Sequence record: ON528725
Length of the DNA: 64,000 bases
Strand: one strand, 5' to 3'
DNA from: Shigella phage ESh15
Part shown: piece by piece, positions 616-20,065 of the stretch
Numbering within the stretch: position 1 is the stretch's first letter
Layout of the letters: every line of letters begins with the position of its first letter
Program-made: the position numbers and the translations under genes
The notes under the pieces: model-generated
What the model saw: only the letters and a program-made list of their open reading frames with translations
Database searches by the model: none
Told to the model about the DNA's origin: nothing

Positions 616-645
616 ACTATAACATAGTCCTACCAAGATGTAAAC
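616..645 (-). promoter_or_regulatory. early promoter cassette (-35 GTTTAC, -10 TATAGT inside inverted repeat)
   Basis: plus-strand gtaaac at 640-645 and actataa at 616-622; 8-bp inverted repeat taggacta/tagtccta flanks the -10. Confidence 0.6.
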
Positions 646-851
646 TACCGATTGTGTTTTAAATGTTGATAAAGTTCTTCAACTTGTTTAGGGTCCAAAA
701 CAATTAAGTCATTTTCTTGGCGAAGATAAATCCATCCCTTATCCCCAGGACCATTTTTACAAAACATCACCACCATATCATCATCTTCAGCGCTTTCAGG
801 TAAAAGTTCAAGTACACCGTCTTCAGATTTTCCAGTATAATCGTAAAGCAT
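645..851 (-). CDS. hypothetical acidic protein (68 aa)
   Basis: ATG at 849-851 with GAGGA SD; track ORF extends to 878 (also ATG but no SD). Confidence 0.45.
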   Translation of the reverse strand: MLYDYTGKSEDGVLELLPESAEDDDMVVMFCKNGPGDKGWIYLRQENDLIVLDPKQVEELYQHLKHNR

Positions 852-858
852 AATGTCC

Positions 859-1038
859 TCACATAATCTCGTTAACATACATTTGCAATTCGGTGTGGGC
901 GTCGGCCATCTTTTTCATAGCTCTGTTAATGTCGATGTCTCCATCTTCGCAACCATGAGCATTTTCCCAATCGGATACAGAATTAGCATACTCTTCAATC
1001 AAAAACATCAACTTAGAAATCTTTTCTTTACGTGTCAT
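859..1038 (-). CDS. hypothetical protein (59 aa), rI.-1 position
   Basis: ATG at 1036-1038 with GAGGAG SD; the longer track ORF starts at a non-SD codon. Confidence 0.45.
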   Translation of the reverse strand: MTRKEKISKLMFLIEEYANSVSDWENAHGCEDGDIDINRAMKKMADAHTELQMYVNEIM

Positions 1039-1065
1039 AACGTTCTCCTCTAGTAAGTAAAGACT

Positions 1066-1094
1066 ACTATAACACAACCTGAGGAGAAGTAAAC
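1066..1094 (-). promoter_or_regulatory. early promoter cassette
   Basis: gtaaac at 1089-1094, -10 from plus actata 1066-1071; inverted repeat ttctcctc/gaggagaa pairs the SD region with the spacer. Confidence 0.6.
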
Positions 1095-1105
1095 TGATAG
1101 ATGCC

Positions 1106-1133
1106 AAAAAGCCCCAACCATAAGGAAGGGGCT
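1106..1133 (-). terminator. rho-independent terminator downstream of rI
   Basis: minus-strand hairpin agcccc-12nt-ggggcu followed by UUUUU (plus A-run 1106-1110). Confidence 0.6.
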
Positions 1134-1139
1134 AGTAAA

Positions 1140-1442
1140 TTAGATAGATGTAGGCTCTAATTTTATTTTCATGAACTCAGCAAATTGTCTGGCAGTTTTT
1201 ATGCCTTGTTCATGACATTCAAATGCATCATCACAGGGGCTATTTTTGTAATGCTTTGCCATATACTTATAGAATTTTTCAGAATTCTCGACATTTTGAA
1301 TTTCAAACAAAGTATATACGTTTTTAATCCCTGATTCCATAAAGTTATCAAAATATGGGTCAATATGTGCAGTACCAACGATAGGAGTTGTTGCTGCAAA
1401 AAACCCCAGCATCGCTATGACAGCTATCGCTCTTAAGGCCAT
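1140..1442 (-). CDS. rI: lysis inhibition regulator rI (membrane-anchored periplasmic protein)
   Basis: 100 aa, N-terminal transmembrane segment, resemblance to T4 rI as recalled (MAL..., DPxFDxFMESGI), position next to tk. Confidence 0.7.
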   Translation of the reverse strand: MALRAIAVIAMLGFFAATTPIVGTAHIDPYFDNFMESGIKNVYTLFEIQNVENSEKFYKYMAKHYKNSPCDDAFECHEQGIKTARQFAEFMKIKLEPTSI

Positions 1443-1454
1443 ATAGGCCTCCTG

Positions 1455-1667
1455 TTAATTTTGGCCAGTATTTATTTTTCGCCTTTGGACGGCCTTAACA
1501 TCTGCGAGGTATTTTTCCAGCTTGCGCTTGCGTGTATAATCAGCTTTAGAACCAGTTTGACGGATATCCTCGTTTAAATGAGAAATAGAATGTCCTAATT
1601 CTCTTCGGATTTCATCCAATTGGGTTACAGTAAGATTACGAAGTTGTCTTTCGTTTAATTGCTGCAT
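1455..1667 (-). CDS. hypothetical basic protein (70 aa), rI.1 position
   Basis: ATG at 1665-1667 with AGAGG SD; between tk and rI. Confidence 0.5.
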
Positions 1668-1694
1668 ATATACCTCTTGGTTAGATATTAGTAT

Positions 1695-2276
1695 TTATAA
1701 CAACCCTGTCAAATCATTCCAATGCTTCCGGCATAATGACACGTATCTATCGGTATCACCAATTTCAATTTGACTGCCATCTGTAATTGGAAGTCCGTCT
1801 TCCGTGACTCTAGCTACCATTGTGGCCTTTTTACCACAATGACAGACACCTTTAAGTTCAACAAGCTTATCGGCAATAGCCATTAATGCTTGAGAACCTT
1901 CAAATAGATTACCTTTAAAATCTGTTCGTAGTCCATATGCCATTACTGGCACATTGTATACGTCAACAATACGACTAAGTTGATACACCTTTTCAGTAGT
2001 TAAGAACTGAGCTTCGTCAACAAATACACAGTGAATATCCTTTTGTGCCGCAGCCCATTTATAGAATTCAAAGACATCCATATCTTCGGTAATTATATTG
2101 GCATCCTGACGAATACCAATACGAGAGACTATTTCACCTTTTGAATCACGAGTATCAATAGCCGGTTTAAGAACTAATACACCCATGCCACGTTCTTTAT
2201 AGTTATGTGCGGCAGTAAGTAATGAAGCAGACTTACCAGCGTTCATAGCGGCATAGGTAAAAATTAAACTAGCCAT
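1695..2276 (-). CDS. tk: thymidine kinase
   Basis: 193 aa, P-loop AMNAGKS, zinc-ribbon CHCGKKA...CRKH; T4 Tk length. Confidence 0.9.
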   Translation of the reverse strand: MASLIFTYAAMNAGKSASLLTAAHNYKERGMGVLVLKPAIDTRDSKGEIVSRIGIRQDANIITEDMDVFEFYKWAAAQKDIHCVFVDEAQFLTTEKVYQLSRIVDVYNVPVMAYGLRTDFKGNLFEGSQALMAIADKLVELKGVCHCGKKATMVARVTEDGLPITDGSQIEIGDTDRYVSLCRKHWNDLTGLL

Positions 2277-2285
2277 AAGAGTCCC

Positions 2286-2468
2286 TTATAGTGAATTCAC
2301 ATAGTCAATGAGTTCTTGTTCTTTCCTGTCAAATGATTCCAACAATGCTTGATATTCTTCATCTGTTAAAGGAGCATATTCATCGTACGCATTGGTGGCT
2401 GCTTGCTCATCCAATAGGTCATGGATAAGTTCGAACAGTTTAGCTTTTTCTTCTTTAGTCAATTTCAT
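2286..2468 (-). CDS. hypothetical acidic protein (60 aa)
   Basis: ATG at 2466-2468; tk.1 position. Confidence 0.45.
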   Translation of the reverse strand: MKLTKEEKAKLFELIHDLLDEQAATNAYDEYAPLTDEEYQALLESFDRKEQELIDYVNSL

Positions 2469-2959
2469 TTAGGTTCCCAATCAACAATCACAATTTCTAG
2501 TTTAGTGGAATACGTATCTAAAATCTCTTCGATGACATCCCAGTTTCCACCACCAATACCTGCACCAATTCTTGGCATATAAATTACAGGCTTTGTTATC
2601 TTATTCTTTCCGAATTTATTTAATTCTATTATACAATTCATTAAAGCAGAGTACTCAAAATTAGGTCCCGGCTCAAACTGTGTATAAAGATTAAAGCAAT
2701 AAGCTTTATGGGTCTTAAAATATTTTTCATAAACCGAATAAGACCCGAGTTTAGACTCGTCTCCGAATTCGGTTTGAAGTTTATCGGCTTCCAGAATTTT
2801 TGGATAAGCCTTTGCTAATTGACCTGCTACACCAGCGCCCATTGTATGAAAACAATTACACCCATGAGCAATATTATTACCTTTAGAAAACAGGGCGACA
2901 ATATCGCCCTTGATATAGTTTTTAATCACTTGCTGCAAGTCCTCTAGTATAAGAGTCAA
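2465..2959 (-). CDS. macrodomain-like protein (putative ADP-ribose binding or hydrolase)
   Basis: motifs N-x-x-x-MGAGVAGQL and P-R-IGAGIGGG match the two glycine-rich loops of macro domains; first codon is TTG at 2957-2959 (GGTGGA SD), alternative GTG at 2927-2929. Confidence 0.55.
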   Translation of the reverse strand: MTLILEDLQQVIKNYIKGDIVALFSKGNNIAHGCNCFHTMGAGVAGQLAKAYPKILEADKLQTEFGDESKLGSYSVYEKYFKTHKAYCFNLYTQFEPGPNFEYSALMNCIIELNKFGKNKITKPVIYMPRIGAGIGGGNWDVIEEILDTYSTKLEIVIVDWEPK

Positions 2960-3269
2960 CTAGACGGTCCACCATAGAATTGCATGCTGCCTTATCTTTA
3001 GGTTCCGCCACCGAGCATTCTAATATTTGCCATTTTTTATAGTATCTTTTAATTAAGGTAGACGCCTTGAACCTACTAGACGCCCCATCTTTTTCTCCGT
3101 CTTTATATGCGTATAACAATTTTTGTGAAAAATCTACTTTACACTCTTGACTTTTACCACAATAATCAGACGCCGTTCTGTTTGTATACTCCGTTACATC
3201 AGTATATGTAGTATTAGCAAGAGCGTTAAATGAAACCAAGCCAACTATTAAAGCTAACATTTTGGTCAT
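2922..3269 (-). CDS. small secreted/periplasmic protein with signal peptide (vs position)
   Basis: 115 aa, N-terminal MTKMLALIVGLVSFNALA signal peptide, ATG at 3267-3269. Confidence 0.5.
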   Translation of the reverse strand: MTKMLALIVGLVSFNALANTTYTDVTEYTNRTASDYCGKSQECKVDFSQKLLYAYKDGEKDGASSRFKASTLIKRYYKKWQILECSVAEPKDKAACNSMVDRLVDSYTRGLAASD

Positions 3270-3808
3270 TCTTTTATTTCCAGTAGTTTATTTGATTTAA
3301 GGTAATTAGCCTTTTCTAGGACTTCAGAAGCATATTTACTTCCAGCACTTGTCTTCCATCCCGCATTATATGAGGATATGGCTTTCCTTATATCCCCGTT
3401 ATGTATATTTAACCAATAAGAAAATTCGATATAAGCCCATCTTGCTGAATTAGACCGCTTAGATAGCATTTTCTTAATTTGGGCATCAGTCATATTATAA
3501 CCAAGCTGGTTAATTCTTGCCCTCATTGTTGGTAGATAGTTTTGGAACATTCCATACGCATGGTGACCTTTCTTATCTTTAAGATTAATACCGGCGGATG
3601 ATTCTTGCCATAGTATTGCGGCCATTATGTATCCAAGTCCTTTCTTATGCATATTTTCATGCGTTTTAAATTTTCCGTCCTTAGAAAACTGTTCCCCAAA
3701 CTGATAAGCATAATTCAAGTTATCGAGTTGGACATTACTAAAAGTATGCTCGGAGCTATGTGCTGATAACGAAAGAGCAAATAGACCAGCGAGTAGTGCT
3801 TTTCTCAT
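3266..3808 (-). CDS. periplasmic lytic-transglycosylase-like (SLT domain) protein
   Basis: 180 aa, signal peptide, catalytic-type E-S-S motif (ILWQESSAG) and AYNAG-like SYNAGW motif; GAGGT SD. Confidence 0.6.
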   Translation of the reverse strand: MRKALLAGLFALSLSAHSSEHTFSNVQLDNLNYAYQFGEQFSKDGKFKTHENMHKKGLGYIMAAILWQESSAGINLKDKKGHHAYGMFQNYLPTMRARINQLGYNMTDAQIKKMLSKRSNSARWAYIEFSYWLNIHNGDIRKAISSYNAGWKTSAGSKYASEVLEKANYLKSNKLLEIKE

Positions 3809-3816
3809 GTTTACCT

Positions 3817-4275
3817 CTAGATTTTAATCACTGCTTTAGAAGCTTTTCCTGGTAGTCGTTTACTGTTAATAATAGCCATTCTGCATTGAAGAGTCTTCAT
3901 TTTGAATGCCGGATTTTCGCGACAAACTGTAAGTCCTAACCAAAGATTTCCATCAGTTATTTCTAAACGGCCTGGGCGATATTCGACACCTTCGACAAAA
4001 TCTTCATCAACATCTGGACGTGCCGGCATTGATAAAAATTCTGCAACTTCTTTAACATGATTTTTTACTTTATGAAATAATTCAAAAACGTAATTCTCAT
4101 CTATTTCTCTCTGGATGGCACGATCTAAGAGATGTTGAGAATACTTGATATGAAAGCCTGGTAGTCCAAGAGACTTTGCAGCATCTTTTATACCGGCATT
4201 TATTTTGCGGAACTCCGTTTCAAAGATTCGACGGAGTTTATTACGACGGATAAAAACTTCCGAATTGATAGTCAT
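3817..4275 (-). CDS. regB: RegB site-specific endoribonuclease
   Basis: 152 aa; N-terminus MTIN(S/T)EVFIRRNKLRR and C-terminus CRMAIINS(K/R)RLPGKASKAVIK match T4 RegB as recalled. Confidence 0.85.
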   Translation of the reverse strand: MTINSEVFIRRNKLRRIFETEFRKINAGIKDAAKSLGLPGFHIKYSQHLLDRAIQREIDENYVFELFHKVKNHVKEVAEFLSMPARPDVDEDFVEGVEYRPGRLEITDGNLWLGLTVCRENPAFKMKTLQCRMAIINSKRLPGKASKAVIKI

Positions 4276-4300
4276 TTTGATTTCTCCTCTAGTTGACAGG

Positions 4301-4332
4301 TCTATAGTAACACAACTAGAGGAGAAGTAAAC
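4301..4332 (-). promoter_or_regulatory. early promoter cassette upstream of regB
   Basis: gtaaac 4327-4332; -10 TACTAT from plus tctatagta 4301-4309; 12-bp inverted repeat including the SD. Confidence 0.6.
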
Positions 4333-4336
4333 TACT

Positions 4337-4546
4337 TTATTCTTGGAACGGTGTGAGTTTTCCAGCTATCGAACAAATTTCTACCATCGCAGGATAAAAC
4401 TCTTTCACTTGTTCAAGGCGCTGGACAGCGTACCGCATTTCGCCTTCTTCAAGACAAGCCGCCTGGTCATCGAGCAAATATTTGTGGTAACCTGTACAGG
4501 CTTCGCTAATGATACGTTGGAATTCTTGCAAACTTTCAATTTTCAC
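4337..4546 (-). CDS. hypothetical protein (69 aa), probable GTG start
   Basis: first codon GTG (plus cac 4544-4546) with GAGGA SD, overlapping upstream stop by 1 nt. Confidence 0.4.
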   Translation of the reverse strand: MKIESLQEFQRIISEACTGYHKYLLDDQAACLEEGEMRYAVQRLEQVKEFYPAMVEICSIAGKLTPFQE

Positions 4547-4812
4547 TAGTATTTTTCCTCGGGTCTAAATACTGCACGACAGGCCCACATGCTGGCTTCT
4601 TTTAGATGTTGCTTAGCGTACTTAAGAGCCTGCACTGCATCCATATCTTCTTTGGTTTGTTGCTCTGTTTCATTTTCTTTCAAGATATATGCTTCTTCAA
4701 TCAGAGCATCAAACATCAATCCAAGACGGACTTCAGCATCTTTAATAGCGTTCACTTTACTAATTTTATCATCGGTATGCGGCTTGTAGCCTTTGATGTC
4801 TTCAATTGACAT
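4546..4812 (-). CDS. hypothetical small helical protein (88 aa), vs.4-like position
   Basis: ATG at 4810-4812 with GAGGA SD; track ORF extends further at a non-SD codon. Confidence 0.45.
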   Translation of the reverse strand: MSIEDIKGYKPHTDDKISKVNAIKDAEVRLGLMFDALIEEAYILKENETEQQTKEDMDAVQALKYAKQHLKEASMWACRAVFRPEEKY

Positions 4813-5026
4813 AAGGAATTTCCTCATCGGTGGCAAGGTCATATTCGACCAATTGGATAGGCTCATTAATACCATATCCACGTACAGTGATATCAGTTGT
4901 CGGATAGTTTCCAGTAATATCACCCATTCTAAATGCTTCAATGAATGATTGCTCGCCTGAGCAACTAAACCAGGCGGCAAAACATTTTAAAACATCTTCA
5001 GACCCTTCTATAATCAATTTAGCCAT
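4802..5026 (-). CDS. hypothetical acidic protein (74 aa)
   Basis: ATG at 5024-5026 overlapping the upstream stop (TAATG). Confidence 0.45.
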   Translation of the reverse strand: MAKLIIEGSEDVLKCFAAWFSCSGEQSFIEAFRMGDITGNYPTTDITVRGYGINEPIQLVEYDLATDEEIPYVN

Positions 5027-5388
5027 TATAGACTCTCAGTAAAGGTACGAGCGATAACGTCGCGCTGCTGTTCCGGAGTCAGAGAGTTAAAGCGAACTGC
5101 ATAACCGGATACACGGATGGTCAGTTGCGGATATTTTTCCGGATGCTTAACTGCATCTTCCAGAGTTTCGCGACGCAGAACGTTAACGTTCAGGTGTTGA
5201 CCACCTTCAATTTTAACTTTAGGTTGATGTTCAATTTCAATTTCACGGGCATTCAAACCGTAGAAAATTTCCGGGTCTACAATAGCGTCTTCTTTAAAAG
5301 TCTTAGAGACAATAATCCGGGCTTGAGTACCGTCTTCAAAATAAATAGTGCCTTTGTGTGTGCCTTCAAGAATTTGATATGCTTTCAT
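5026..5388 (-). CDS. autonomous glycyl radical cofactor, GrcA/YfiD-like (T4 Y06I-like)
   Basis: 120 aa; C-terminal glycyl-radical motif RVSGYAVRF; C-terminal ~65 aa look the same as E. coli GrcA as recalled. Confidence 0.8.
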
Positions 5389-5394
5389 ATAACC

Positions 5395-5703
5395 TCAATT
5401 AGAAAATAAATTTATCCAAGTTTTTTCTTTAATCAAAAATGGGTCGGAATTAAACGCCATTAAACTTTGAGTGGTTAATCCCTTAAATGGCCCATCAATA
5501 AATTCCATTTTGAAATGCGGAATACTAGTCATCAACCGTGCATTAGGAGCAGTACAAAGAACCTGCTGCCCTGCGAACGGACCTTTAGTCAAACGATATC
5601 GTTTAGGTTTAAAATGGTAAATCTCGTAATTTTCTACAAGAGCCCTTTTATTGCATACTGGGCTGTTATAACAATACTCAAAAACTTCAATAGTGGTCAT
5701 CAT
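5395..5703 (-). CDS. hypothetical protein (102 aa)
   Basis: ATG ATG at 5698-5703; overlaps upstream stop. Confidence 0.5.
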   Translation of the reverse strand: MMTTIEVFEYCYNSPVCNKRALVENYEIYHFKPKRYRLTKGPFAGQQVLCTAPNARLMTSIPHFKMEFIDGPFKGLTTQSLMAFNSDPFLIKEKTWINLFSN

Positions 5704-6239
5704 TGCATTCCAATCACAAAAAATTGAGGACGAGCATTACCGCCTATGCAATATTTGCTTTTGCAACAGTGTTGGACTGTTTTAATATGTACATTGTAAA
5801 TCTTATCCATATCAGGAGCTTTAATAGGCTCGTCAATTATATACAGAATACGAGAAAGCGTTAATCCACGGAATTTAGAACCTTCATTGCCAATAAAACT
5901 ACGAACAGAATCAGTAAATAAACGGAATCGAATATCGTCGCTAGAATAACGAGAAAATTCTTTTTTAATGTTGCCAACAGAAATTTTAGCATAAGCTGAA
6001 GTATTAGAAAGAACAATAACTGTTCCACCATCATACAGCCAATTAACAGCGAAATTAGTTACTGCGGTCGATTTACCTGATTGTCTGCCGCCGTCTAAAC
6101 GAAGTGTACAGTACTGCTTGAGTACGTCTTCAAATGGTGGGACATAACCGTTCTTACAAATTTCTTCTACTCTAGCATCAGAATGGTGTGTAAAAGCATT
6201 CATCAGGGATAGATAAGGTCCAGTTAAAAATGTTCTCAT
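5700..6239 (-). CDS. P-loop NTPase (Walker A/B) of unknown function
   Basis: 179 aa; Walker A GGRQSGKST, Walker B-like ILYIIDEP; ATG at 6237-6239. Confidence 0.6.
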   Translation of the reverse strand: MRTFLTGPYLSLMNAFTHHSDARVEEICKNGYVPPFEDVLKQYCTLRLDGGRQSGKSTAVTNFAVNWLYDGGTVIVLSNTSAYAKISVGNIKKEFSRYSSDDIRFRLFTDSVRSFIGNEGSKFRGLTLSRILYIIDEPIKAPDMDKIYNVHIKTVQHCCKSKYCIGGNARPQFFVIGMQ

Positions 6240-6412
6240 TTAGTTTCTCTTAAGGTTGGGGCCATTCCGTGGCACATGTTAGGTCCTTCGACTCGCTATG
6301 TAAACCCATTACCGCACTTGGGCTCGACCTTATTACAGGTTGGAAAAGGTACATCACTCAGAGGACTCGACGTTCGTGAGGAGAGGTTGCGTTTCCCTTT
6401 ATTAGGCAAGAA

Positions 6413-6742
6413 TTATACTCTAGGCTTTTGAGCTTGTTTGGTATTGGATTCCCACGCTGCTTTAGTAATTTTGTTAGCGGCATAGCCAAAGGCATTAGAT
6501 AGAACACCTTTAGAGTTGAATACATCCAATCCAATAAGTACACCGGCTGCGTTAAATTTAGGAGCAAAGTATGCATTAGTTTTAGAAAGAGCTTTTTTCA
6601 ATTCAGGGTCTTGAACCAAGCCATCAAAAACGCCTTTACCATTTACTTTATATGTTACTTTAGGATTTTTACCTTCTTCGATAGCAGCTTTCTGTTCCGC
6701 AGATAATGTAACTTCAGTGATAAATTCTTGATACGTTTTCAT
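6413..6742 (-). CDS. internal-protein (IP) candidate with capsid-targeting sequence
   Basis: 109 aa; N-terminus MKTYQEFITE matches the T4 IP capsid-targeting sequence; basic. Confidence 0.65.
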   Translation of the reverse strand: MKTYQEFITEVTLSAEQKAAIEEGKNPKVTYKVNGKGVFDGLVQDPELKKALSKTNAYFAPKFNAAGVLIGLDVFNSKGVLSNAFGYAANKITKAAWESNTKQAQKPRV

Positions 6743-6783
6743 ATGTTTCCTTTAAATGTAAATAGGCCTAAGTATAGGCCTTA

Positions 6784-7362: not shown

Positions 7363-7388
7363 TTTTGTTCCTATTCTTTTAATTTATG

Positions 7389-13316: not shown

Positions 13317-13622
13317 TTAGCACAATGCAGAAGACGAAACCCAAGCACCTTCAGTAATAACGTAACCATTACCTTCACGCTTAACGTCGCCACCATTATT
13401 TTCAATTTCATTTTTCATCCACTGGGATACGATTTCACCCTTAGGATAATAAGTACGACCGCTACCATAATCACCTACAGAAAATGATACAGCATATTGG
13501 TCTGCGATCTTTGTTGCTTCTTCTTCGATACGTTCAGCTTGATTCAGAAGTTTATAAATTGCATCTGAAGCGGATTTGGCATCATTAAACTCTGGCACTT
13601 TAATTTCAATAATCTTACTCAT
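13317..13622 (-). CDS. small protein, member 1 of tandem GWVSSSxxC family (101 aa)
   Basis: C-terminus EGAWVSSSALC; internal YGSGRTYYPKG motif; AAGGA SD. Confidence 0.5.
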   Translation of the reverse strand: MSKIIEIKVPEFNDAKSASDAIYKLLNQAERIEEEATKIADQYAVSFSVGDYGSGRTYYPKGEIVSQWMKNEIENNGGDVKREGNGYVITEGAWVSSSALC

Positions 13623-13680
13623 TTTCTACATTCCTTAATAAAGTTTTCGATTGTTTCATTTTCACGTCTAGCTAGGAGTT

Positions 13681-13710
13681 CATTATAACTAATCATTTGA
13701 GAAGCGTAAA
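13681..13710 (-). promoter_or_regulatory. early promoter (-35 GTTTAC, -10 TTATAAT) for the triplet
   Basis: gtaaac 13705-13710; plus attataa 13681-13687; 17-nt spacer. Confidence 0.55.
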
Positions 13711-13720
13711 CAGCATAAAT

Positions 13721-14113
13721 TCAGTTAAGGCTTTTGCATCTTATCTCCTTAACGAATTCCATGGCTTCATTGTATTCATACTTTTTAACAGCTTCATCAT
13801 ACTGAGCTTGGGCTTTTGCGCACTGAACTTTCCATTCTCTTAATCGGGCTCTGTGATGACGGCCTTGGTGCCAATATCCTGCCCAATTAATAGGCATTAA
13901 TAAAAACGGTACAATAAGTGGTGCGACGAACATTAATGAAAATGCTGCATCAGACGATATAACTTCACTAGAATCTAAAACAGCTCCTATAATCATAAAG
14001 ATTAAAAATGCTAAAGCTAAAATAGGACCAAACAACACCTCATTAGGAATTAATTTACGTTTGTATTCGTATGCCCAGGGCTTAATTGGCATGTACAGGG
14101 TTGGCTTTGACAT
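13721..14113 (-). CDS. hypothetical membrane protein (~130 aa)
   Basis: two predicted TM helices; ATG at 14111-14113 (track start at 14143 is a TTG). Confidence 0.45.
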   Translation of the reverse strand: MSKPTLYMPIKPWAYEYKRKLIPNEVLFGPILALAFLIFMIIGAVLDSSEVISSDAAFSLMFVAPLIVPFLLMPINWAGYWHQGRHHRARLREWKVQCAKAQAQYDEAVKKYEYNEAMEFVKEIRCKSLN

Positions 14114-14684
14114 ATTCTCTACATTCCATAATAAATTGCTCAAGGATTAAATTGTTAGTGAAATTAGGACTAACAACCATAGTTTCATAAAGCGCATCAA
14201 TAGCACTTAAAGCATCAACTCTTTTAAGCAAAGGCTTGCCTTCATACATAGTTTCAGAATCTACGATTAGCGTAAAGTAATATTTTTTATTATCGACTAG
14301 AACTTCAGTATCGATATAAAACATGTTAGACCTTAAAAGCTTATCTCTAAAACCATAATAATCTTCAGAGCGTTCGCTGATATATTCCCATTCAGTGTTT
14401 AAACAACAAACAGACCATGTAGGAGCAACGAAATCAGTGAATCTAATATCATGGTCTGCAACTAGTTTAGCAATAGCTCCGATATCATGAATCATAATAC
14501 CTGGGGCTAATAAAGATTTTCTGCTATGGCTAGCCGTTTTCTCAGTAGTCTCATAAGAAGACGACCAGTACCATTTACGTCCGGTTGCAACATATCGTAA
14601 TGAATCAACTAAAGACGTAGGTGGATTTACCTTATCTCGGAACTCTTCGAACATTGAGTCAATATCATTATTTTGGTTTCGCAT
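14082..14684 (-). CDS. hypothetical protein (200 aa)
   Basis: ATG 14682-14684 with AAGGAG SD (track start at 14705 is TTG). Confidence 0.5.
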   Translation of the reverse strand: MRNQNNDIDSMFEEFRDKVNPPTSLVDSLRYVATGRKWYWSSSYETTEKTASHSRKSLLAPGIMIHDIGAIAKLVADHDIRFTDFVAPTWSVCCLNTEWEYISERSEDYYGFRDKLLRSNMFYIDTEVLVDNKKYYFTLIVDSETMYEGKPLLKRVDALSAIDALYETMVVSPNFTNNLILEQFIMECREYVKANPVHAN

Positions 14685-14703
14685 GTTAACTCCTTTATTA
14701 TCC

Positions 14704-14727
14704 AAAAAAGGAGGACCGGAGTCCTCC
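14704..14727 (-). terminator. rho-independent terminator
   Basis: minus-strand hairpin ggaggac-ucc g-guccucc followed by UUUUUU (plus A-run 14704-14709). Confidence 0.6.
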
Positions 14728-14735
14728 GTATTATT

Positions 14736-15329
14736 TTATTTCAAAGAGTTAATATATTCTTGTACATCAGCAGAAGTTGTTTCGACACCAGCTGGAGTGC
14801 CATTGAATGTTTCAACACGAGTCAGAGTGTCTTCGATATCAACCTTAGTCAGTGCAGCAATTTCGATTACATCATCGGCCGTAGAGATACCAAGGGCATT
14901 GGCTGCTCGAGTTTCACGAATGTATTCGAGTTTGATTGCCAGATTCTGACGAGCATCATCAAGTTCAACCACCTTACGAGCAATTTCAATTCGCATAGCG
15001 GCGTACCCGTCAGCTTTTGTATTAAGTTGTTCGGCTGTTCGACGATACAGAAGTCCAAGCTTAGCATGCATGGTAACATCTTGTCCTTCAGCCAGGAGCT
15101 TACGAATTTCACGTTCTTTAGAAGCGGCTTGCTTGTTCTTTTCATTAACAAGTTCGCGAATACGTTTTTCTTCATTAATAGATTTAACAGAAGCCGTTTT
15201 TAGTTCTTTGATTTGGGTAATCAACTTATCTGCGGCTGCGTTATACTGTTCTTCGACAGTCAGATTTTTAGCCATAGCAGTACCCAGTTTAGTGCGGATG
15301 AATTCAACAAGTTTCTTCAGTGTGTTCAT
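14736..15329 (-). CDS. coiled-coil protein of unknown function (~197 aa)
   Basis: ATG at 15327-15329; long heptad-like helical sequence; no catalytic motif. Confidence 0.5.
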
Positions 15330-15370
15330 ATTATTACCTTTCAATTGGTGGTTTATTATCCAACGAGAGC

Positions 15371-15400
15371 ATTATACTCTGCTCTCAAGAGTTTGTAAAT
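15371..15400 (-). promoter_or_regulatory. early promoter (-35 ATTTAC variant, -10 TATAAT in inverted repeat gagagc/gctctc)
   Basis: plus attata 15371-15376, gtaaat 15395-15400. Confidence 0.5.
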
Positions 15401-15627
15401 TATTTTTTAATCAAATTGACATAAAACTTAGCGTCTTCAGGGTGCATGCCTTCGCAGTATTCTTCAACCATGAACTTCTTAACAGCTTCATAAGGACCAC
15501 TCAGATTAAGCTCAGTTGTCCAAAACTTGGAATCTTGGGCTGAATCGATATGAACTTCAGGGTGTCGGTTGCGAATAACTTCTTCGGTGTATTCATAATC
15601 AACGACATCAATACTAACTTTAGCCAT
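15400..15627 (-). CDS. hypothetical acidic protein (75 aa)
   Basis: ATG 15625-15627 with GAGGAA SD. Confidence 0.45.
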   Translation of the reverse strand: MAKVSIDVVDYEYTEEVIRNRHPEVHIDSAQDSKFWTTELNLSGPYEAVKKFMVEEYCEGMHPEDAKFYVNLIKK

Positions 15628-15652
15628 TTTGTTTTCCTCTTGATTTGATGTG

Positions 15653-15685
15653 ATTACTATAACATAAACTTACTTAGATGTAAAT
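15653..15685 (-). promoter_or_regulatory. early promoter cassette (-35 ATTTAC variant)
   Basis: plus actata 15655-15660, gtaaat 15680-15685. Confidence 0.45.
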
Positions 15686-15838
15686 TATTTCAACGTCACC
15701 TTTAGCTGCTTTATAACCTTCAGCCCAAGATATAACAGAGTTTTTATCTGAGGATTCAAATTCAGGCATTGGACTTTCACCAATATTCACACAGTATGTT
15801 TCTTCATTTTCATCGAACCAAATAATTAAAGTAGTCAT
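15674..15838 (-). CDS. hypothetical small acidic protein (54 aa), below track cutoff
   Basis: ATG 15836-15838 with GGAG SD; leader almost identical to that of the 89-aa gene at 52192-52461. Confidence 0.4.
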   Translation of the reverse strand: MTTLIIWFDENEETYCVNIGESPMPEFESSDKNSVISWAEGYKAAKGDVEIIYI

Positions 15839-15865
15839 TTTGTTTACTCCACTGTAGTTGATAAG

Positions 15866-15900
15866 TCTATAGTATCACCATCCTTGGTGCTTGTACATCA
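15866..15900 (-). promoter_or_regulatory. early promoter cassette (variant -35)
   Basis: -10 TACTAT from plus tatagtatc 15868-15876; leader 15841-15877 matches 52468-52503 with one mismatch. Confidence 0.4.
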
Positions 15901-15906
15901 TTATTT

Positions 15907-16212
15907 TTAATTTTTCCAACTTAACAACTTGTAGTGTCCTTCATTCATACGTGGTTTATCCCAAGAAATACTAATATATGATTCGCTGTCAATAGAAGTC
16001 GCCGGGTTTTTCTCTACCGTAAGACCTTCACTTTCTAACCATTCAATAGTGTTTGCGCATAAATCTGAAGAACACCTCATCGGAAACTGGCAAGATTTTT
16101 CACCTTTAGCTGCAGTGTTATACATCTTTTCTAAAATACGCTTTTGCACGTTTTTAAAAATAGTTTCAGCAGATTCTTCAGATTTTTTATTCAGTTCAGT
16201 GTAAAGACTCAT
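15907..16212 (-). CDS. hypothetical protein (101 aa)
   Basis: ATG 16210-16212 with GAGGAG SD. Confidence 0.45.
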   Translation of the reverse strand: MSLYTELNKKSEESAETIFKNVQKRILEKMYNTAAKGEKSCQFPMRCSSDLCANTIEWLESEGLTVEKNPATSIDSESYISISWDKPRMNEGHYKLLSWKN

Positions 16213-16242
16213 AATATTCTCCTCATGTTTTGATAGGTCTAT

Positions 16243-16269
16243 AATAACACATCTATGGAAGAAGTAAAC
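16243..16269 (-). promoter_or_regulatory. early promoter cassette
   Basis: gtaaac 16264-16269; -10 from plus tctataataaca. Confidence 0.5.
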
Positions 16270-16292
16270 AACTTTTTCAGTAAGTTATAGAC

Positions 16293-16316
16293 CCCCTAAA
16301 GGGGACCGAAGTCCCC
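16293..16316 (-). terminator. GC-rich hairpin after the 16322-16942 gene (weak terminator or stabiliser)
   Basis: ggggac-cgaa-gucccc hairpin immediately after the stop; only a short U tract. Confidence 0.35.
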
Positions 16317-16321
16317 ATTCT

Positions 16322-16942
16322 TTACTTACGAGTTTTTGCATACTGAGCAGCGTCAGCAGCCAAACGACCTGCCTGACGAAGTTTTTCTTTAATCTCATCA
16401 TGAAGTGGTTGAGTATACTTCAAACCTTCGATAGTCAAATAAAGACGATAAAGGTCTGGGGTATCAAGGTTGTTGATATGTTGGCCATTACGAAGAATAT
16501 TAAATTCACGAACGAGTGAAGATGTATCGGATTCAATATCACGAACAAGCGAAGATAGTTGTTTATATTTTTTTTCCAGGCTAGAAGTATCAAACTTAAG
16601 AGCAGGAGCTTTAGGAGTTGCTTTTACTTCCGGCTTAGGCTCAGGTTTTGCTTTAGGGGTCGTAGGTTTAGGAATGGTAGGAGCAGGTTTTACTTTAGGC
16701 GAACCAGATTTAGCAGAAACACCACCACTAACAATATCTTTGAATGCTTTAGAAGCTCTGTAATATTCTTTTTGGCTGGAAGTGTCGATACCGTACATGG
16801 CTTGAACGTTTTTGAAAAACTCTGTACTAGTTTTTGTACCAGAAATAGCATCGTAAGCAGCTTGCCATTTCTCTTTTGTCATACGTACACCGGCTTCGGT
16901 GATTACTTCCGTTTCGGCTAAAAATTCATTAAAAGTATACAT
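16322..16942 (-). CDS. IP-like protein with capsid-targeting-like N-terminus and Pro/Lys-rich linker
   Basis: 206 aa; N-terminus MYTFNEFLAE; central KPAPTIPKPTTPKAKPEPKPEVKATPKAP low-complexity linker. Confidence 0.55.
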   Translation of the reverse strand: MYTFNEFLAETEVITEAGVRMTKEKWQAAYDAISGTKTSTEFFKNVQAMYGIDTSSQKEYYRASKAFKDIVSGGVSAKSGSPKVKPAPTIPKPTTPKAKPEPKPEVKATPKAPALKFDTSSLEKKYKQLSSLVRDIESDTSSLVREFNILRNGQHINNLDTPDLYRLYLTIEGLKYTQPLHDEIKEKLRQAGRLAADAAQYAKTRK

Positions 16943-16987
16943 TGATGGTCCTTAGAAAGTAGGTTTATTGTTTACTATATTTATACA

Positions 16988-17016
16988 AAAAAGCCCCAAC
17001 CTTTCGGAAGGGGCTA
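16988..17016 (-). terminator. rho-independent terminator at the distal end of the tRNA/stable-RNA region
   Basis: minus-strand hairpin agcccc-12nt-ggggcu followed by UUUUUU; near-identical to the terminator at 1106-1133. Confidence 0.6.
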
Positions 17017-17058
17017 TATACCTTGTCGGGGTTTCCACCTACTAAGGCAAGTGTTTGT

Positions 17059-17150
17059 ACGAAACGCCGGGACTCGAACCCGGTTATTAAGCAGTTGACG
17101 CTACTCAATATTTTTAAAAGGCCATATCTCGACCATATCCGAACGTTCCG
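17059..17150 (-). ncRNA. candidate stable RNA with tRNA-like T-arm and acceptor stem (not a canonical tRNA)
   Basis: CCGGG-TTCGAGT-CCCGG T-arm and a 7-bp acceptor pairing CGGAACG/CGTTTCG, but 92 nt with no canonical D or anticodon arm. Confidence 0.3.
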
Positions 17151-17318
17151 TCAAAAACGCTACTCGGCTTACGGCAAAGATATTTCCTCGAATCGATAAT
17201 TCGGTGCGCCGTTTCTGCTGTGATGTAAGGGGATATTAACGAATCATAAAGATTTATTAAGACCAGTCCTTACTCAGGGAACATCAGTCCGACGTCTTGC
17301 CGGTAGCGACCCGGCTTC

Positions 17319-17663
17319 TTATTTTGGCATATCATCAATTTGTTCTCGACGCCGACGCCATAGATTAATCGCTTCATTGGCACATTCTGCGTTTGGTATA
17401 TGACGGCAATAATATAATGATTCGCGTTTCTGGAACCGATGTTGCAATGGAATTTCGTTTAAAAGGTCTTTACGGTCAAAGTATTCAAAACTAGTTAACC
17501 CAGAACGGTTTTTAAGAAACTTCCAATGTCCGAATTCATTTTGAAAATAAACGTAATCAGCGTGTTGATATAACGAATTAATCAACCGGTCGGAAATAAC
17601 TGTATCCTGTTCGTTAAAATAAAACGTTAAATCATGAACTACCAAATAAATATTGCCTTTCAT
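17319..17663 (-). CDS. hypothetical protein (114 aa) within the tRNA region
   Basis: ATG 17661-17663 with GAGGA SD; the track start at 17711 would overlap tRNA-Arg. Confidence 0.45.
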   Translation of the reverse strand: MKGNIYLVVHDLTFYFNEQDTVISDRLINSLYQHADYVYFQNEFGHWKFLKNRSGLTSFEYFDRKDLLNEIPLQHRFQKRESLYYCRHIPNAECANEAINLWRRRREQIDDMPK

Positions 17664-17681
17664 ATTTTCCTCACTTGAAGT

Positions 17682-17758
<77 letters not shown>

Positions 17759-17761
17759 GAT

Positions 17762-17836
17762 TGGTGACCCTGGCTGGTTTCGATCCAGCTACCTATCAGT
17801 TATGAGCTGACAGCTCTCCCATTGAGCTACAGGGCC
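17762..17836 (-). tRNA. tRNA with CAT anticodon (Ile-CAU/lysidine type or Met)
   Basis: hand-folded cloverleaf: acceptor GGCCCTG/CAGGGTC, D-stem GCTC/GAGC, anticodon loop CTCATAA, T-arm GCTGG-ATCGAAA-CCAGC, encoded CCA; 3 nt from tRNA-Arg. Confidence 0.7.
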
Positions 17837-17894
17837 TAAATAACTTTCTATTATGAAAGGCACTTTATAGCACCTTTGGTAATAGAGGGTATGA

Positions 17895-17923
17895 ATTAAT
17901 AATAACACATAATTCTTAAAGCA
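17895..17923 (-). promoter_or_regulatory. candidate MotA-dependent middle promoter upstream of the tRNA genes
   Basis: minus-strand TGCTTTA MotA-box-like element (plus taaagca 17917-17923) ~12 nt upstream of an AT-rich -10. Confidence 0.35.
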
Positions 17924-18431
17924 AATCAATCATTTTAACAGTCGGCAAAACAATTTCTTCTTCAATATAAGCGAATTCAACACGTTCAACTACACGCAAG
18001 AAATCGTAATCATAGTATTCAGAAGCATAGCCAAGAATATCAATAAGTCCTTGAGATATCTCATCGCCTTTCACAAAGAACAGGTCGAATACGCGGGCTT
18101 CGTCTTCTTCAGATTTATCACCAAGGTCTACTTCGATACCAAAGACCTTTTTAATAAATTCCGGTTGGAGTTGGTCTGAGAACAGTCCTTCAACCAAGTA
18201 TTCATAGATTAAAAGCGAGCAATCACTGAATGGTGTATTGCCACAGTAACGTTCAGCTTTAGTGCTGGAATGTCGGCTCTTAAATTTCTTCAAGAGGTAT
18301 TTGAACTGTTGGAGCTCATGCTCTCCCACTTCAAACAATGTTTTGGTTTTATAGTTGTCACCATCATTTTCATAGGTAGTGACATCAATTACGTAGCCCT
18401 TAGGAATTGTACTGCCTAAACAAATATTCAT
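17916..18431 (-). CDS. hypothetical acidic protein (171 aa)
   Basis: ATG 18429-18431. Confidence 0.5.
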   Translation of the reverse strand: MNICLGSTIPKGYVIDVTTYENDGDNYKTKTLFEVGEHELQQFKYLLKKFKSRHSSTKAERYCGNTPFSDCSLLIYEYLVEGLFSDQLQPEFIKKVFGIEVDLGDKSEEDEARVFDLFFVKGDEISQGLIDILGYASEYYDYDFLRVVERVEFAYIEEEIVLPTVKMIDLL

Positions 18432-18435
18432 TTAC

Positions 18436-18726
18436 TCACCGTACCATATTAATGTAATTATATTCAATGCAACGTAATTTCAAAGGATTCTTGAAAATAT
18501 CATATTCAAGAGGGCCTTTTTCTGTTTCAATAAAGAAATCAAAGTTCACACTATTAAATTTGCGGTCTTCCCAAAGTAATTTAACTTGCGAAGATGAACG
18601 GTCGATATAAACCTTTTCAACCTCAAAGTTAGTCAGAATACCGTAGTCATCGACTAGTGCTTTAGCTGCACGTTGATCGCTTTCATATCCATTCTCAACG
18701 GATTTTACCTTAGCATAAAGAATCAT
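18436..18726 (-). CDS. hypothetical protein (96 aa)
   Basis: ATG 18724-18726. Confidence 0.45.
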   Translation of the reverse strand: MILYAKVKSVENGYESDQRAAKALVDDYGILTNFEVEKVYIDRSSSQVKLLWEDRKFNSVNFDFFIETEKGPLEYDIFKNPLKLRCIEYNYINMVR

Positions 18727-19085
18727 GAGTGTTCCACCATTTCAAAGGTATGAGCATCAACAATATGATACCAGTCAAAATTTTCTTCTGCTTTTTTATA
18801 AATTTCGCGAAGAGCCTCAACAGTTTTTCCTGTAGCAACAAGGTCGTTAATACCGCCAAGAGGATAACAGTCGTAACCGGCAAACAGAAGGAAATTAATA
18901 GTTTCTGTAGGGGCCGGATGCAGTGTACCATTGTCATCGACTACTTCAAAGAACATATAACCAGGCGATTTAGATTTAATCCAAGCCCATGCTTGAGCTG
19001 CTGAATCAAATGGTCTGCGTATCAAACGACAATCAGGGTCTTTAGAAGGATTTGCTTCAAAATCCGCATATACATGATATTTCAT
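18723..19085 (-). CDS. hypothetical protein (~120 aa)
   Basis: ATG 19083-19085 with AAGGTGA SD (track start at 19103 is TTG). Confidence 0.45.
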   Translation of the reverse strand: MKYHVYADFEANPSKDPDCRLIRRPFDSAAQAWAWIKSKSPGYMFFEVVDDNGTLHPAPTETINFLLFAGYDCYPLGGINDLVATGKTVEALREIYKKAEENFDWYHIVDAHTFEMVEHS

Positions 19086-19086
19086 T

Positions 19087-19272
19087 TTACTCACCTTTTG
19101 CAATTTTATCCATAACGATAGCGATTAAGCCGATTAGAAATGCTACTACCAATGAGATAGAATTTTCTGTTGTTGTCAGTAGTCCACAAATGAATCCTAC
19201 AAACATCGAAAAACTAAAAGCCATTGAAGCAATTACTACAGCAACATTACGAATCAGTTCAGCGCGTTTCAT
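19087..19272 (-). CDS. hypothetical small membrane protein (61 aa)
   Basis: single TM helix; ATG 19270-19272 with GAGGAG SD. Confidence 0.4.
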   Translation of the reverse strand: MKRAELIRNVAVVIASMAFSFSMFVGFICGLLTTTENSISLVVAFLIGLIAIVMDKIAKGE

Positions 19273-19298
19273 TTTATTCTCCTCAGTAGTTGATAGGG

Positions 19299-19330
19299 TA
19301 ATAGTATCACTACCCTATCTAAAAGTAAAC
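19299..19330 (-). promoter_or_regulatory. early promoter cassette
   Basis: gtaaac 19325-19330; -10 TACTAT; 9-bp inverted repeat gatagggta/taccctatc with compensatory changes relative to other copies. Confidence 0.6.
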
Positions 19331-19341
19331 GGTTTTATAAA

Positions 19342-19650
19342 CTATTTTATTCCGCGTGATGCAATCGTATTCTGCCGTTTAACGCCAGTTTGTTTAAAGT
19401 TATGATTGTCGAGTTGATCGGTACGAGCAACTCCGAATGATGATTTAATCTTAGCTTTAGATCCTTTAGTTATAGAAATAAACATCTCGGGAGCCCCTTT
19501 CTTAAAGTCCGAAGCAATTACTTCAACACCGTTCTTAGCAAGTGACCTCAGAATTGCTTCCGCATACTCATCATCAAGACCCGCTTGAGTATGAATAACG
19601 AATGTCTTTGGTGCAGCTGCTTCACAGATAAATTCTTTAAATGTTTTCAT
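19342..19650 (-). CDS. internal-protein (IP) candidate with capsid-targeting sequence
   Basis: 102 aa; N-terminus MKTFKEFICE; basic. Confidence 0.6.
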   Translation of the reverse strand: MKTFKEFICEAAAPKTFVIHTQAGLDDEYAEAILRSLAKNGVEVIASDFKKGAPEMFISITKGSKAKIKSSFGVARTDQLDNHNFKQTGVKRQNTIASRGIK

Positions 19651-19680
19651 TTTATTTTCCTAATTAATTTTGATAGGACT

Positions 19681-19710
19681 ACTATAACATAGTCCTATCA
19701 GCATGTAAAC
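19681..19710 (-). promoter_or_regulatory. early promoter cassette
   Basis: gtaaac 19705-19710; -10 TATAGT; 11-bp inverted repeat. Confidence 0.6.
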
Positions 19711-19713
19711 TAC

Positions 19714-20001
19714 TTACAGAAGAGTTTTTGCAATAATTTTAAGCTGAGCTACAGAAATATGCTTAGCTTTAAACAGTGCAGTCTCTTCAGCTGGAGAGAT
19801 AACAATAGTAGCGCCATCTTTCTTAGCAGACCATCCATCACCTAAGTAAACAGTACCTTTTACTTCTTCGCCGTCAACCAGACTAATCATTGGTTTACCC
19901 TCACGTCCTTTATTTGCTTTAATAACTTCGGAAGTAAGGGTTGCTTCAGTCAGAGTAGAAACGTTAGCAACAGGTGATATAAATTCTTTATAGGTTTTCA
20001 T
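19714..20001 (-). CDS. internal-protein (IP) candidate, ipI-position and IPI-sized
   Basis: 95 aa; N-terminus MKTYKEFISP; adjacent to 57B as ipI is in T4. Confidence 0.6.
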   Translation of the reverse strand: MKTYKEFISPVANVSTLTEATLTSEVIKANKGREGKPMISLVDGEEVKGTVYLGDGWSAKKDGATIVISPAEETALFKAKHISVAQLKIIAKTLL

Positions 20002-20032
20002 TTTATTTCCTTGAGGTCGTTTATTTGATAGG

Positions 20033-20065
20033 ATGATAGTATCACACCGTCATCCTTATGTAAAC
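20033..20065 (-). promoter_or_regulatory. early promoter cassette
   Basis: gtaaac 20060-20065; -10 TACTAT; 7-bp inverted repeat aggatga/tcatcct. Confidence 0.55.

Follow-up and report, generated by a model that had tools for sequence, protein, structure and literature searches.

Predicted early-promoter cassettes with −10-enclosing hairpins in the early region of an RB69-like T4-type phage

The DNA studied here is a 64,000-nucleotide stretch of Shigella phage ESh15 (record ON528725; the window), whose minus strand carries a dispersed family of promoter cassettes, many with an inverted repeat around the −10 element. Its sequence identifies the phage as an RB69-like T4-type coliphage (Mosigvirus), with window positions 1–20000 being ~96% identical to RB69-like coliphages of the genus Mosigvirus (moskry, JS09, p000v, and SSE1). 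Mapped onto the JS09 annotation, the early genes on the minus strand run mobD.1–rI–tk–vs–regB–vs.x–ip–denV–e–nudE–…–frd.3–tRNA–ipI–57B–57A–1, and this region is one of the hyperplastic regions of T4-type phages. Late structural genes on the plus strand come next, with gene 23 at 50571–52139 and gene 24 at 52562–53842. An Rfam scan of the whole window at the gathering threshold returned only two transfer RNA (tRNA) genes, both on the minus strand (17685–17758 and 17765–17836; RF00005, 71 and 59 bits), and no family covers the cassettes.

A position weight matrix built from the cassette copies and scanned over both strands of the window yields a family of 15 minus-strand copies and no further copy above 12 bits. 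Fourteen lie within 585–20065, the mobD–tk–regB–denV–e–ipI hyperplastic region, and one lies at 52459–52521; besides this copy between genes 23 and 24, the scan found no cassette in the remaining 40 kilobases of late genes. The pattern GTTTAC-N14-20-TATAGT has seven matches in the window, against 0.11 expected. Each cassette is ~60–75 base pairs (bp) long and spans the entire intergenic space before the next small early gene. When aligned on the −10 element, the copies share a GTTTAC −35 element, a spacer of 17–18 nucleotides, the extended −10 element TGnTA(T/C)(A/T)(A/G)T, and a conserved (C)CTATCAA box at the position of the expected transcription start. This box is followed by a short leader (ATCAACTAC… or ATCAAAAC…), a Shine-Dalgarno sequence (SD), and ATG. 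By eye, most copies also have an A-rich stretch 5' of the −35 element (AAAACA, AAAATA, or AAAAAG).

An earlier note on this DNA had described at least 16 near-identical copies, each with GTTTAC, a −10 element TGnTATAGT or TACTAT, and GAGGAG. At every coordinate it listed, a minus-strand −35/−10 pair followed by an SD and ATG is indeed present, but the count is 15 family copies, with a looser, sixteenth promoter at 13682–13711. Near-identity did not hold up, as pairwise identity over a 62-nucleotide block averages 51% (range 34–76%). The spacer length is kept in all 15 copies, the TGn extension in 14, and an exact GTTTAC in 12 (one or two mismatches in the other three); GGAG occurs in 10 copies and GAGGAG in just six.

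The cassettes are co-oriented with, and lie 5' of, orthologs of T4 early genes (regB, denV, ipI, mobD.2, mobD.2a, frd.3, e.6, and tRNA.4), and T4 promoters occupy the same positions. The early promoters of T4 and RB69, 57 of which have been predicted in RB69 (Nolan et al. 2006, PMC1524935), have a consensus of GTTTAC, a TGn-extended −10 element, and an A-rich upstream region (PMC1524935; Hinton 2010, PMC2988021). The window copies share with them the GTTTAC and TGn −10 elements, A-richness at −40 to −44, a preference for C at −3 to −1, and placement before T4 early-gene orthologs and novel open reading frames (ORFs). This consensus match and the orthologs downstream bear out the early-promoter identity that had been proposed: by their sequence, the copies are sigma-70-type early promoters, each fused to the 5' untranslated region and ribosome-binding site of the next gene. 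Descriptions of these promoters have concerned linear sequence, and Nolan et al. name no inverted repeats or stem-loops (PMC1524935). The two conserved leader families (e.g., at 8466–8474, 19292–19300, 52483–52491, and 4295–4303) are both common to T4 promoters (denV, trna.4, e.8, and nrdC.10). Conservation that extends into the transcribed bases suggests that the 5' end of the messenger RNA (mRNA) has a function, for example in initiation efficiency, in stability, or as a processing site.

Each cassette was folded from the −35 element to the ATG and compared with dinucleotide shuffles and with chimeras, in which the 5' half of one copy was joined to the 3' half of an unrelated copy. Nine of the 15 cassettes (616, 4304, 8475, 11501, 12793, 15371, 19301, 19681, and 20036) have a significant hairpin enclosing the −10 element, with energies of −12 to −22 kcal/mol and z-scores of −2 to −6, the native sequence being better than every chimeric half-swap. 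The hairpin of copy 1066 is borderline, and none of significance was found against these controls in 7734, 15656, 15869, 16241, and 52492. An inverted repeat around the −10 element, previously ascribed to each copy, is thus a property of nine, with a tenth uncertain and five lacking it; the arm pairs quoted for it (taggacta/tagtccta, gatagggta/taccctatc, and ttcctccaag/cttggaggaa) are all present.

The hairpins follow two designs. Class A stems join the spacer to the 3'-terminal bases of the −10 element together with the next four, variable bases and the CCTATC start box, as in GATAGGACTAT/GTAGTCCTATC, GATAGGGTA/TACCCTATC, AGGATGA/TCATCCT, and GAGAGC/GCTCTC. The SD is left unpaired, the stem standing 5' of it and 3' of the stop codon of the upstream gene. 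In class B, found at regB, denV, and mobD.2a, an anti-SD segment that begins 0–2 nucleotides past the −35 hexamer pairs with the SD, leaving the −10 element in the loop; the SD is therefore the downstream arm in copies 4304, 8475, and 1066, as had been noted for several copies. The cassettes and two related sites are as follows, the number in brackets identifying each copy in the text.

Cassette 1 (616), 585–645, minus strand: class A; −35 element at 645–640, TGT-TATAGT at 621–616, GGAG at ~597, ATG at 587–585; fold −18.3 kcal/mol, z = −5.0, better than all 11 chimeras; precedes a 36-amino acid ORF like mobD.2; the G of GTTTAC is overlapped by the TAG stop codon of the upstream gene.
Cassette 2 (1066), 1036–1094, minus strand: class B with a bulge, TTCTCCTC after the −35 element pairing with the SD GAGGAGAA; fold −13.5 kcal/mol, z = −1.4 (borderline); precedes a mobD.2a-like gene (59 amino acids); a terminator-like CCCC..GGGG with a T-run lies immediately 5'.
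Cassette 3 (4304), 4273–4332, minus strand: class B, TTCTCCTCTAGTTG pairing with CAACTAGAGGAGAA over 14 bp; the helix covers the SD of regB (152 amino acids); fold −21.6 kcal/mol, z = −5.1.
Cassette 4 (7734), 7701–7763, minus strand: TGG-TATAAT; no significant hairpin (fold −4.4, z = −0.1); precedes an internal-protein gene with the N-terminus MKTYKEFI, the capsid-targeting sequence.
Cassette 5 (8475), 8445–8504, minus strand: class B, TTCCTCCAAG pairing with CTTGGAGGAA over 10 bp; the helix covers the SD of denV (137 amino acids); fold −19.1 kcal/mol, z = −6.2.
Cassette 6 (11501), 11470–11530, minus strand: class A, TATAGGACTAT/GTAGTCCTAT; precedes a homolog of RB69ORF133c.
Cassette 7 (12793), 12762–12822, minus strand: class A with a G·T wobble, GATAGGGCTAT/GTAGTCCTATC; fold −16.1 kcal/mol, z = −4.5; precedes a homolog of RB69ORF135c.
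Cassette 8 (15371), 15327–15400, minus strand: class A with different arms, TTGAGAGC/GCTCTCGTTGG; −35 element ATTTAC, −10 element TATAAT without TGn; fold −14.4 kcal/mol, z = −3.0; precedes e.6 (197 amino acids).
Cassette 9 (15656), 15625–15685, minus strand: ATTTAC, TGT-TATAGT; no hairpin (fold −2.1); precedes frd.3 (75 amino acids).
Cassette 10 (15869), 15836–15898, minus strand: weak −35 element ATGTAC, TGA-TACTAT; no significant hairpin; precedes a 54-amino acid ORF; its 3' half is almost identical to that of cassette 15.
Cassette 11 (16241), 16210–16269, minus strand: weak anti-SD pairing of TTCTTC with GAGGAGAA, wobble included; fold −8.0, z = −0.6; precedes a homolog of RB69ORF146c; a CCCC/GGGG stem-loop lies on its upstream side.
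Cassette 12 (19301), 19270–19330, minus strand: class A, GATAGGGTA/TACCCTATC; precedes tRNA.4 (61 amino acids).
Cassette 13 (19681), 19648–19710, minus strand: class A, GATAGGACTAT/GTAGTCCTATC; precedes a 102-amino acid internal-protein-like gene absent from JS09, moskry, SSE1, and PTK.
Cassette 14 (20036), 19999–20065, minus strand: class A, AGGATGA/TCATCCT; fold −12.8, z = −2.0; precedes ipI (95 amino acids).
Cassette 15 (52492), 52459–52521, minus strand: isolated in the late region; only GTTTAC/GTAAAC pairing, not significant.
Looser early-promoter-like site, 13682–13711, minus strand: GTTTAC-N18-TATAAT without the CTATCAA box.
SD hairpin of gene e (lysozyme), 9274–9299, minus strand: ATACCTCC/GGAGGTAT, with a late-promoter-like TATAAA in the loop.

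The structure, rather than the arm sequence, appears to be what is maintained. We scanned IMG/VR with the pattern GTTTAC-N18-TAYWRT-N4-CTATCAA, which leaves the spacer and the four bases after the −10 element free, and obtained 106 unique matches. In 32 of them the spacer contains the reverse complement of the free tetramer, against 7.9 expected and a maximum of 19 in 2000 permutations, and at least eight different tetramers are represented among these 32 complementary promoters. We consider this permutation more informative than a count of pairs in a fixed register. A larger set of 298 unique T4-type cassettes, gathered irrespective of gene and compared with permuted or chimeric controls, gives the same picture: a perfect helix spanning the −10 element, 7 bp or longer, in 26% of native sequences and 4% of controls, a spacer-to-SD helix of at least 7 bp in 9% and 2%, and a fold energy of −12 kcal/mol or lower in 43% and 13%, respectively.

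Orthologous leaders at regB and denV, taken from IMG/VR, change their arms while remaining complementary. Because the arms are out of common register, a MAFFT alignment of these leaders was not used for pair counts, and an ungapped helix search with chimera controls was used instead. The SD-sequestering helix of regB is kept in the RB69-like group, T4, and three more lineages, with arms that differ in each; the denV leaders show at least six arm solutions. The helix always opens 0–2 nucleotides after the −35 element with (T)TCTCC and continues with covarying extensions (TCTAGTTG/CAACTAGA, TCTTGACTG/CAGTTAAGA, TCTTTATG/CATAAAGA, TGTAAGT/ACTTACA, GTTTG/CAAAC, and TGTG/CACA), of which there are at least eight in the two sets of orthologs together. 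Native regB and denV leaders fold with a mean of −19.1 kcal/mol, as compared with −11.4 kcal/mol for chimeras. Some denV orthologs have a second architecture, in which the partner of the SD is formed by the −10 element's 3' end and the first transcribed bases; the outcome would be the same, with the helix predicted to be missing from the gene's own transcript. The two designs can also coexist in one cassette, as in two IMG/VR regB loci (L141 and L142) a class A stem around the −10 element, GGGCCATG/TATGGCCC, ~70 nucleotides 5' of regB, is nested in a class B anti-SD helix, TTTCCTT/AAGGAGA.

Arms that differ wholly between copies and between orthologs yet remain complementary are the signature of a nucleic-acid helix, and this bears on whether the palindromes are instead operators at which a dimeric DNA-binding protein, of phage or host origin, turns off the early promoters. 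How T4 early promoters are shut off is unknown (PMC2988021, PMC3014915), and the repeat overlaps the −10 element and start site, where a repressor would act. Nevertheless, a third of the cassettes have no repeat, registers vary, and G·T pairs are tolerated. We rejected the operator reading on account of the variable arm sequences and regard it as very improbable.

A strand asymmetry is evident in how the helices are interrupted. Where a helix with at least six Watson-Crick pairs is broken once between paired positions, the interruption is G·T or T·G in 28 unique cases, as against six of A·C or C·A; in the chimera controls, the G·T share is 52% (p = 4e-4). As G·T exceeds A·C, selection appears to act on the sense strand in single-stranded form, most simply as read-through RNA, which speaks against a protein operator. 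Taken with the excess of native over chimeric folds in the window, among the 106 and 298 promoters, and in the covarying regB and denV arms, this agrees with the selection on structure that the earlier note had proposed, and the sequence patterns indicate that the feature is real, non-random, and shaped by selection on RNA structure.

Both designs also occur in T4. A scan of the early regions of NC_000866 yielded 34 promoter-gene cassettes, about half of which fold at −13 kcal/mol or lower. Class B hairpins are found at regB, denV, alc, alt.-3, motB.2, nrdC.8, and ndd.4, with a variant at modB, and class A hairpins at motB, dmd, mobD.2, ipI, ipII, trna.4, 30.7, and cd.2. The hairpin is therefore a general property of T-even early promoters and not a peculiarity of the window. 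The long SD-sequestering helices of T4 alc (gene start 136278) and alt.-3 (123032) are nearly the same, CCCTCGTGTTGTGT…ACATAACATGAGG. At T4 modB (gene start 13130), the 5' arm consists of the −10 element and first transcribed bases and pairs with the SD and AUG.

Comparison of the window with seven Mosigvirus genomes revealed 21 distinct insertion, deletion, or replacement events, and in 8–10 of these a junction falls within a cassette or no more than 30 bp from one. Cassettes cover ~9% of the region yet hold about a third of the distinct breakpoints, a strong enrichment relative to length; the association of cassettes with breakpoints that had been anticipated is thus seen, with an enrichment over gene boundaries that is modest. 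We relied on the junction sequences rather than on these statistics. Cassette 11501 is a chimera of two JS09 cassettes, having the upstream flank and −35 element of one and the spacer, −10 element, and leader of the next. In JS09 these two cassettes flank an extra 262-bp gene that is absent from the window and present in JS09, moskry, and SSE1. Conversely, the window has an extra internal-protein gene (19342–19650) with cassette 19681 on one side and 19301 on the other, and at this place JS09 carries one hybrid cassette; the crossovers fall in the CCTATCAA box region. Other junctions lie in the repeated capsid-targeting sequence of internal-protein genes or at simple gene overlaps.

These junctions speak to the possibility that the inverted repeats are DNA-level recombination signals, acting as cruciforms or single-strand hairpins for a phage recombination or junction-cleaving protein whose activity would drive cassette shuffling. 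That junctions fall inside cassettes would be expected if so. They lie, however, in shared boxes (GTTTAC and CCTATCAA) and in the capsid-targeting repeat, not in the variable arms, a placement that suits ordinary homologous recombination, and the hairpin-less cassettes 15869 and 16241 bear junctions as well. A cruciform, moreover, needs both strands to be paired. Since every sense-strand G·T corresponds to A·C on the opposite strand, the 28:6 asymmetry disfavors it. We judge a recombination signal of this kind improbable.

Several side observations concern the same dispersed sequences. A 250-bp insertion in four relatives (e.3/e.4 region) starts exactly at the GTTTAC of the looser promoter at 13682–13723, where a deletion in the window may have fused two units. 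The starts of internal-protein genes constitute a second dispersed repeat (7674–7729, 6712–6757, 7996–8031, 19619–19662, and 19979–20013), ATGAAAAC(G/A/C)T(A/T)TAAAGAATTTAT…, which encodes the capsid-targeting sequence MKT(Y/F)KEFI. Relative to four relatives, the indel junction 6751|7339 has a 33-bp overlap within this coding repeat, and recombination at the internal-protein locus thus uses the coding repeat as well as the promoter. The isolated cassette 52492 precedes an 89-amino acid minus-strand ORF (52192–52521 with the cassette) that lies antisense between capsid genes 23 and 24. Its 3' half (52455–52501) is identical over 47 nucleotides (100%) to the JS09 cassette orthologous to 15869 in the window, which suggests that a cassette half was copied between distant sites.

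We consider it probable that these elements are early-promoter and ribosome-binding-site cassettes whose hairpin forms in read-through RNA only, that class B hairpins gate the SD and class A hairpins insulate, and that the cassettes recombine with one another. The transcript from a cassette's own promoter is predicted to start at the A of CTATCAA. As the 5' arm lies upstream of the −10 element, such a transcript cannot form the hairpin, which would form solely in RNA reading through from an upstream promoter. Read-through RNA should exist, since the genes of the region are co-oriented and, by a terminator scan, most cassettes have no terminator upstream. For class B (regB, denV, and mobD.2a), we infer that the SD would be paired in read-through RNA and the gene translationally silent, whereas RNA from the gene's own early promoter would be translated; pairing of the SD in read-through RNA alone, as the earlier note had envisaged, accords with the position of the 5' arm. 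Expression would then be tied to the brief lifetime of the early promoter, whose activity ends within minutes, and read-through RNA made later would be silent, including, for denV, late RNA from gene e just upstream. The class A hairpin would most likely be an insulator on read-through RNA, whether by attenuation or by forming a 3' barrier that stabilizes the upstream cistron against 3' exonucleases after cleavage. Since the cassettes are dispersed repeats, homologous recombination between them would delete, insert, or swap the genes they flank.

The proposed class B mechanism resembles that of T4 genes e, soc, 49, and I-TevI, in which a hairpin masks the ribosome-binding site and contains an internal late promoter (Uzan and Miller 2010, PMC3014915). 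In both, the SD lies in a helix, the proximal promoter is inside the hairpin, the proximal transcript (from the predicted start site in our case) has no 5' arm, and the structure is conserved in relatives. For e, soc, 49, and I-TevI, proximal transcripts are translated and long ones are silent, and the same outcome is predicted for class B. The internal promoter of the e-type genes is a late one, however (gp55, TATAAATA), and delays translation, whereas that of class B is early and of sigma-70 type, and would confine translation to the immediate-early period. Class B would thus work like the e-type family while falling outside its usual definition, the promoter within the hairpin being early; it would follow the logic of gene e with the opposite temporal class. 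The window has a true member of the late-promoter family in gene e itself, at which the predicted hairpin (ATACCTCC/GGAGGTAT, 9274–9299, with TATAAA in the loop) was confirmed; this hairpin has been described for T4 and its relatives (PMC3014915).

Stem-loops at early promoters were named promoter early stem-loops (PeSLs) in phages RB49 and phi1, in which the stem is mostly between the −35 and −10 elements or over the −10 element, and in which mini-circles arise and genes are shuffled by way of these elements (Arbiol et al. 2010, PMC2839356). Analogous elements at the T-even internal-protein locus, with T4 early promoters and AT-rich stems, were reported by Repoila et al. 1994 (as cited in PMC2839356), and PeSLs were later described for T4/PST and KVP40/nt-1 as well (Comeau et al. 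2014, PMC4122927). The resemblance of the window cassettes to PeSLs, which the earlier note had pointed out, is supported by comparison with both papers. As in PeSLs, an A-rich region, early promoter, stem-loop (here in 9–10 of 15), SD, and start codon fill the intergenic space; the elements cluster in hyperplastic regions before small non-essential genes; the stem-loop is often between the −35 and −10 elements or over the −10 element, with G·T pairs in stems; and indel junctions between close relatives lie in cassettes.

In the original PeSL model the hairpins act mainly as terminators or attenuators that isolate each gene as a transcription module. One RB49 stem-loop reduced lacZ expression as strongly as rrnB T1 (PMC2839356), and the intergenic position of the hairpins, their occurrence in read-through RNA only, and the sense-strand G·T bias, which is compatible with any RNA-level role, would all accommodate such a function here. 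The window stems, however, are AT-rich and variable, as opposed to the polyG/polyC stems of RB49. No T-run follows any of them, the next eight nucleotides being A-rich (e.g., AAATTAAA and TAAAACAT), and the terminator scan calls none. We therefore rejected a reading as canonical intrinsic terminators. Furthermore, the class B arms are placed on the SD, which is not needed for termination, and lasting covariation around GGAG in regB and denV suits translation control better. On balance, a role chiefly in termination or attenuation seems unlikely. A canonical terminator-like sequence does occur at 14710–14727, where a perfect GC-rich palindrome, GGAGGACTCCGGTCCTCC, which reads the same on both strands, is followed by TTTTTT (minus strand), in contrast to the cassette stems.

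Properties of the phage nuclease RegB are compatible with gating of the SD without proving it. RNA structure inhibits RegB; the enzyme cuts the SD of its own mRNA, and the T4 denV SD resists it in vivo (PMC1702504, PMC3014915). The regB gene is expressed from an early promoter whose activity ceases at 2–3 min (PMC3014915). In class B read-through RNA, GGAG would probably be shielded from RegB. The RegB/S1 target consensus is GGAGRAYARAA (PMC1702504). The SD context of tRNA.4 in the window (19274–19287, GGAGAATAAAA) matches it exactly, and the class B contexts at regB (GGAGAAATCAA) and denV (GGAGGAAATTA) deviate from it.

A number of points weigh against the proposal that promoter-of-origin gating and cassette recombination account for these elements. 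Five of the 15 cassettes lack a hairpin, which is therefore dispensable for promoter function. Among the 106 promoters, fixed-register pairing is only modestly in excess (55.6% as compared with 52.8% in controls, reached by none of 500 shuffles), as is the fixed-register covariation score (0.182 as compared with 0.150, reached by one of 500), the excess being modest because the stems are spread over several registers and are present in only about a third of promoters. Non-independence of the orthologs could inflate the G·T excess, to which a mutation bias specific to the purine-rich sense strand could also contribute. Approximately 25% of gene boundaries carry a cassette, and relative to boundaries the breakpoint enrichment is weak and not clearly significant. 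Durand et al. ascribe the RegB resistance of T4 denV, from in vitro transcripts, to sequence 3' of GGAG and not to structure. Finally, a literature search found no usable maps of T4 transcript 3' ends.

With respect to novelty, the cassettes belong to the early-promoter (PeSL) elements of T4-type phages and are largely known, although Mosigvirus was not among the phages analyzed in the PeSL papers. Those papers do not mention pairing of the SD, and the words 'translation' and 'ribosome' are absent from the 2010 text (PMC2839356). The figure legend of the 2014 paper places T4/PST stems just 5' of the promoter (PMC4122927), whereas the window and T4 stems straddle the −10 element. The review by Uzan and Miller gives no early-promoter cases and terms the regB promoter 'a typical early promoter' (PMC3014915). 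Since the PeSL papers omit SD pairing and the T4 review gives only late-promoter examples, class B may be under-described. Early-promoter gating of the SD was not found in the reviews and PeSL papers, and an earlier description may exist in the older T4 literature.

Tentatively, anti-SD hairpins at early promoters could serve T-even phages as a general and conserved means of licensing RNA by the promoter from which it started. If so, for a subset of immediate-early genes, which in T4 would include those for the RegB nuclease, DenV, Alc, ModB, and others, translation and access by RegB would be confined to RNA started at the gene's own early promoter. Read-through early, middle, and late RNA would be silent, limiting synthesis to the first minutes of infection, the mirror image in time of what happens at gene e. 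A sizeable share of the early genes, including toxic regB and, in T4, alc, might thus be translated from their own promoters only, which would add to the sharp and still unexplained shut-off of early protein synthesis. The cassettes also explain how dozens of small early genes are packed head to tail, each with a strong promoter and ribosome site. Because recombination between cassettes removes or adds whole expressed modules, gene content differs between phages that are 96% identical. These features are relevant to engineering T4-type phages or reusing their promoters as parts.

The tRNA locus of the early region is also variable, with relatives having one or two tRNAs, and p000v a homing endonuclease. 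The indel junctions there (17682–17831) sit at the borders of the tRNA genes and not at cassettes.

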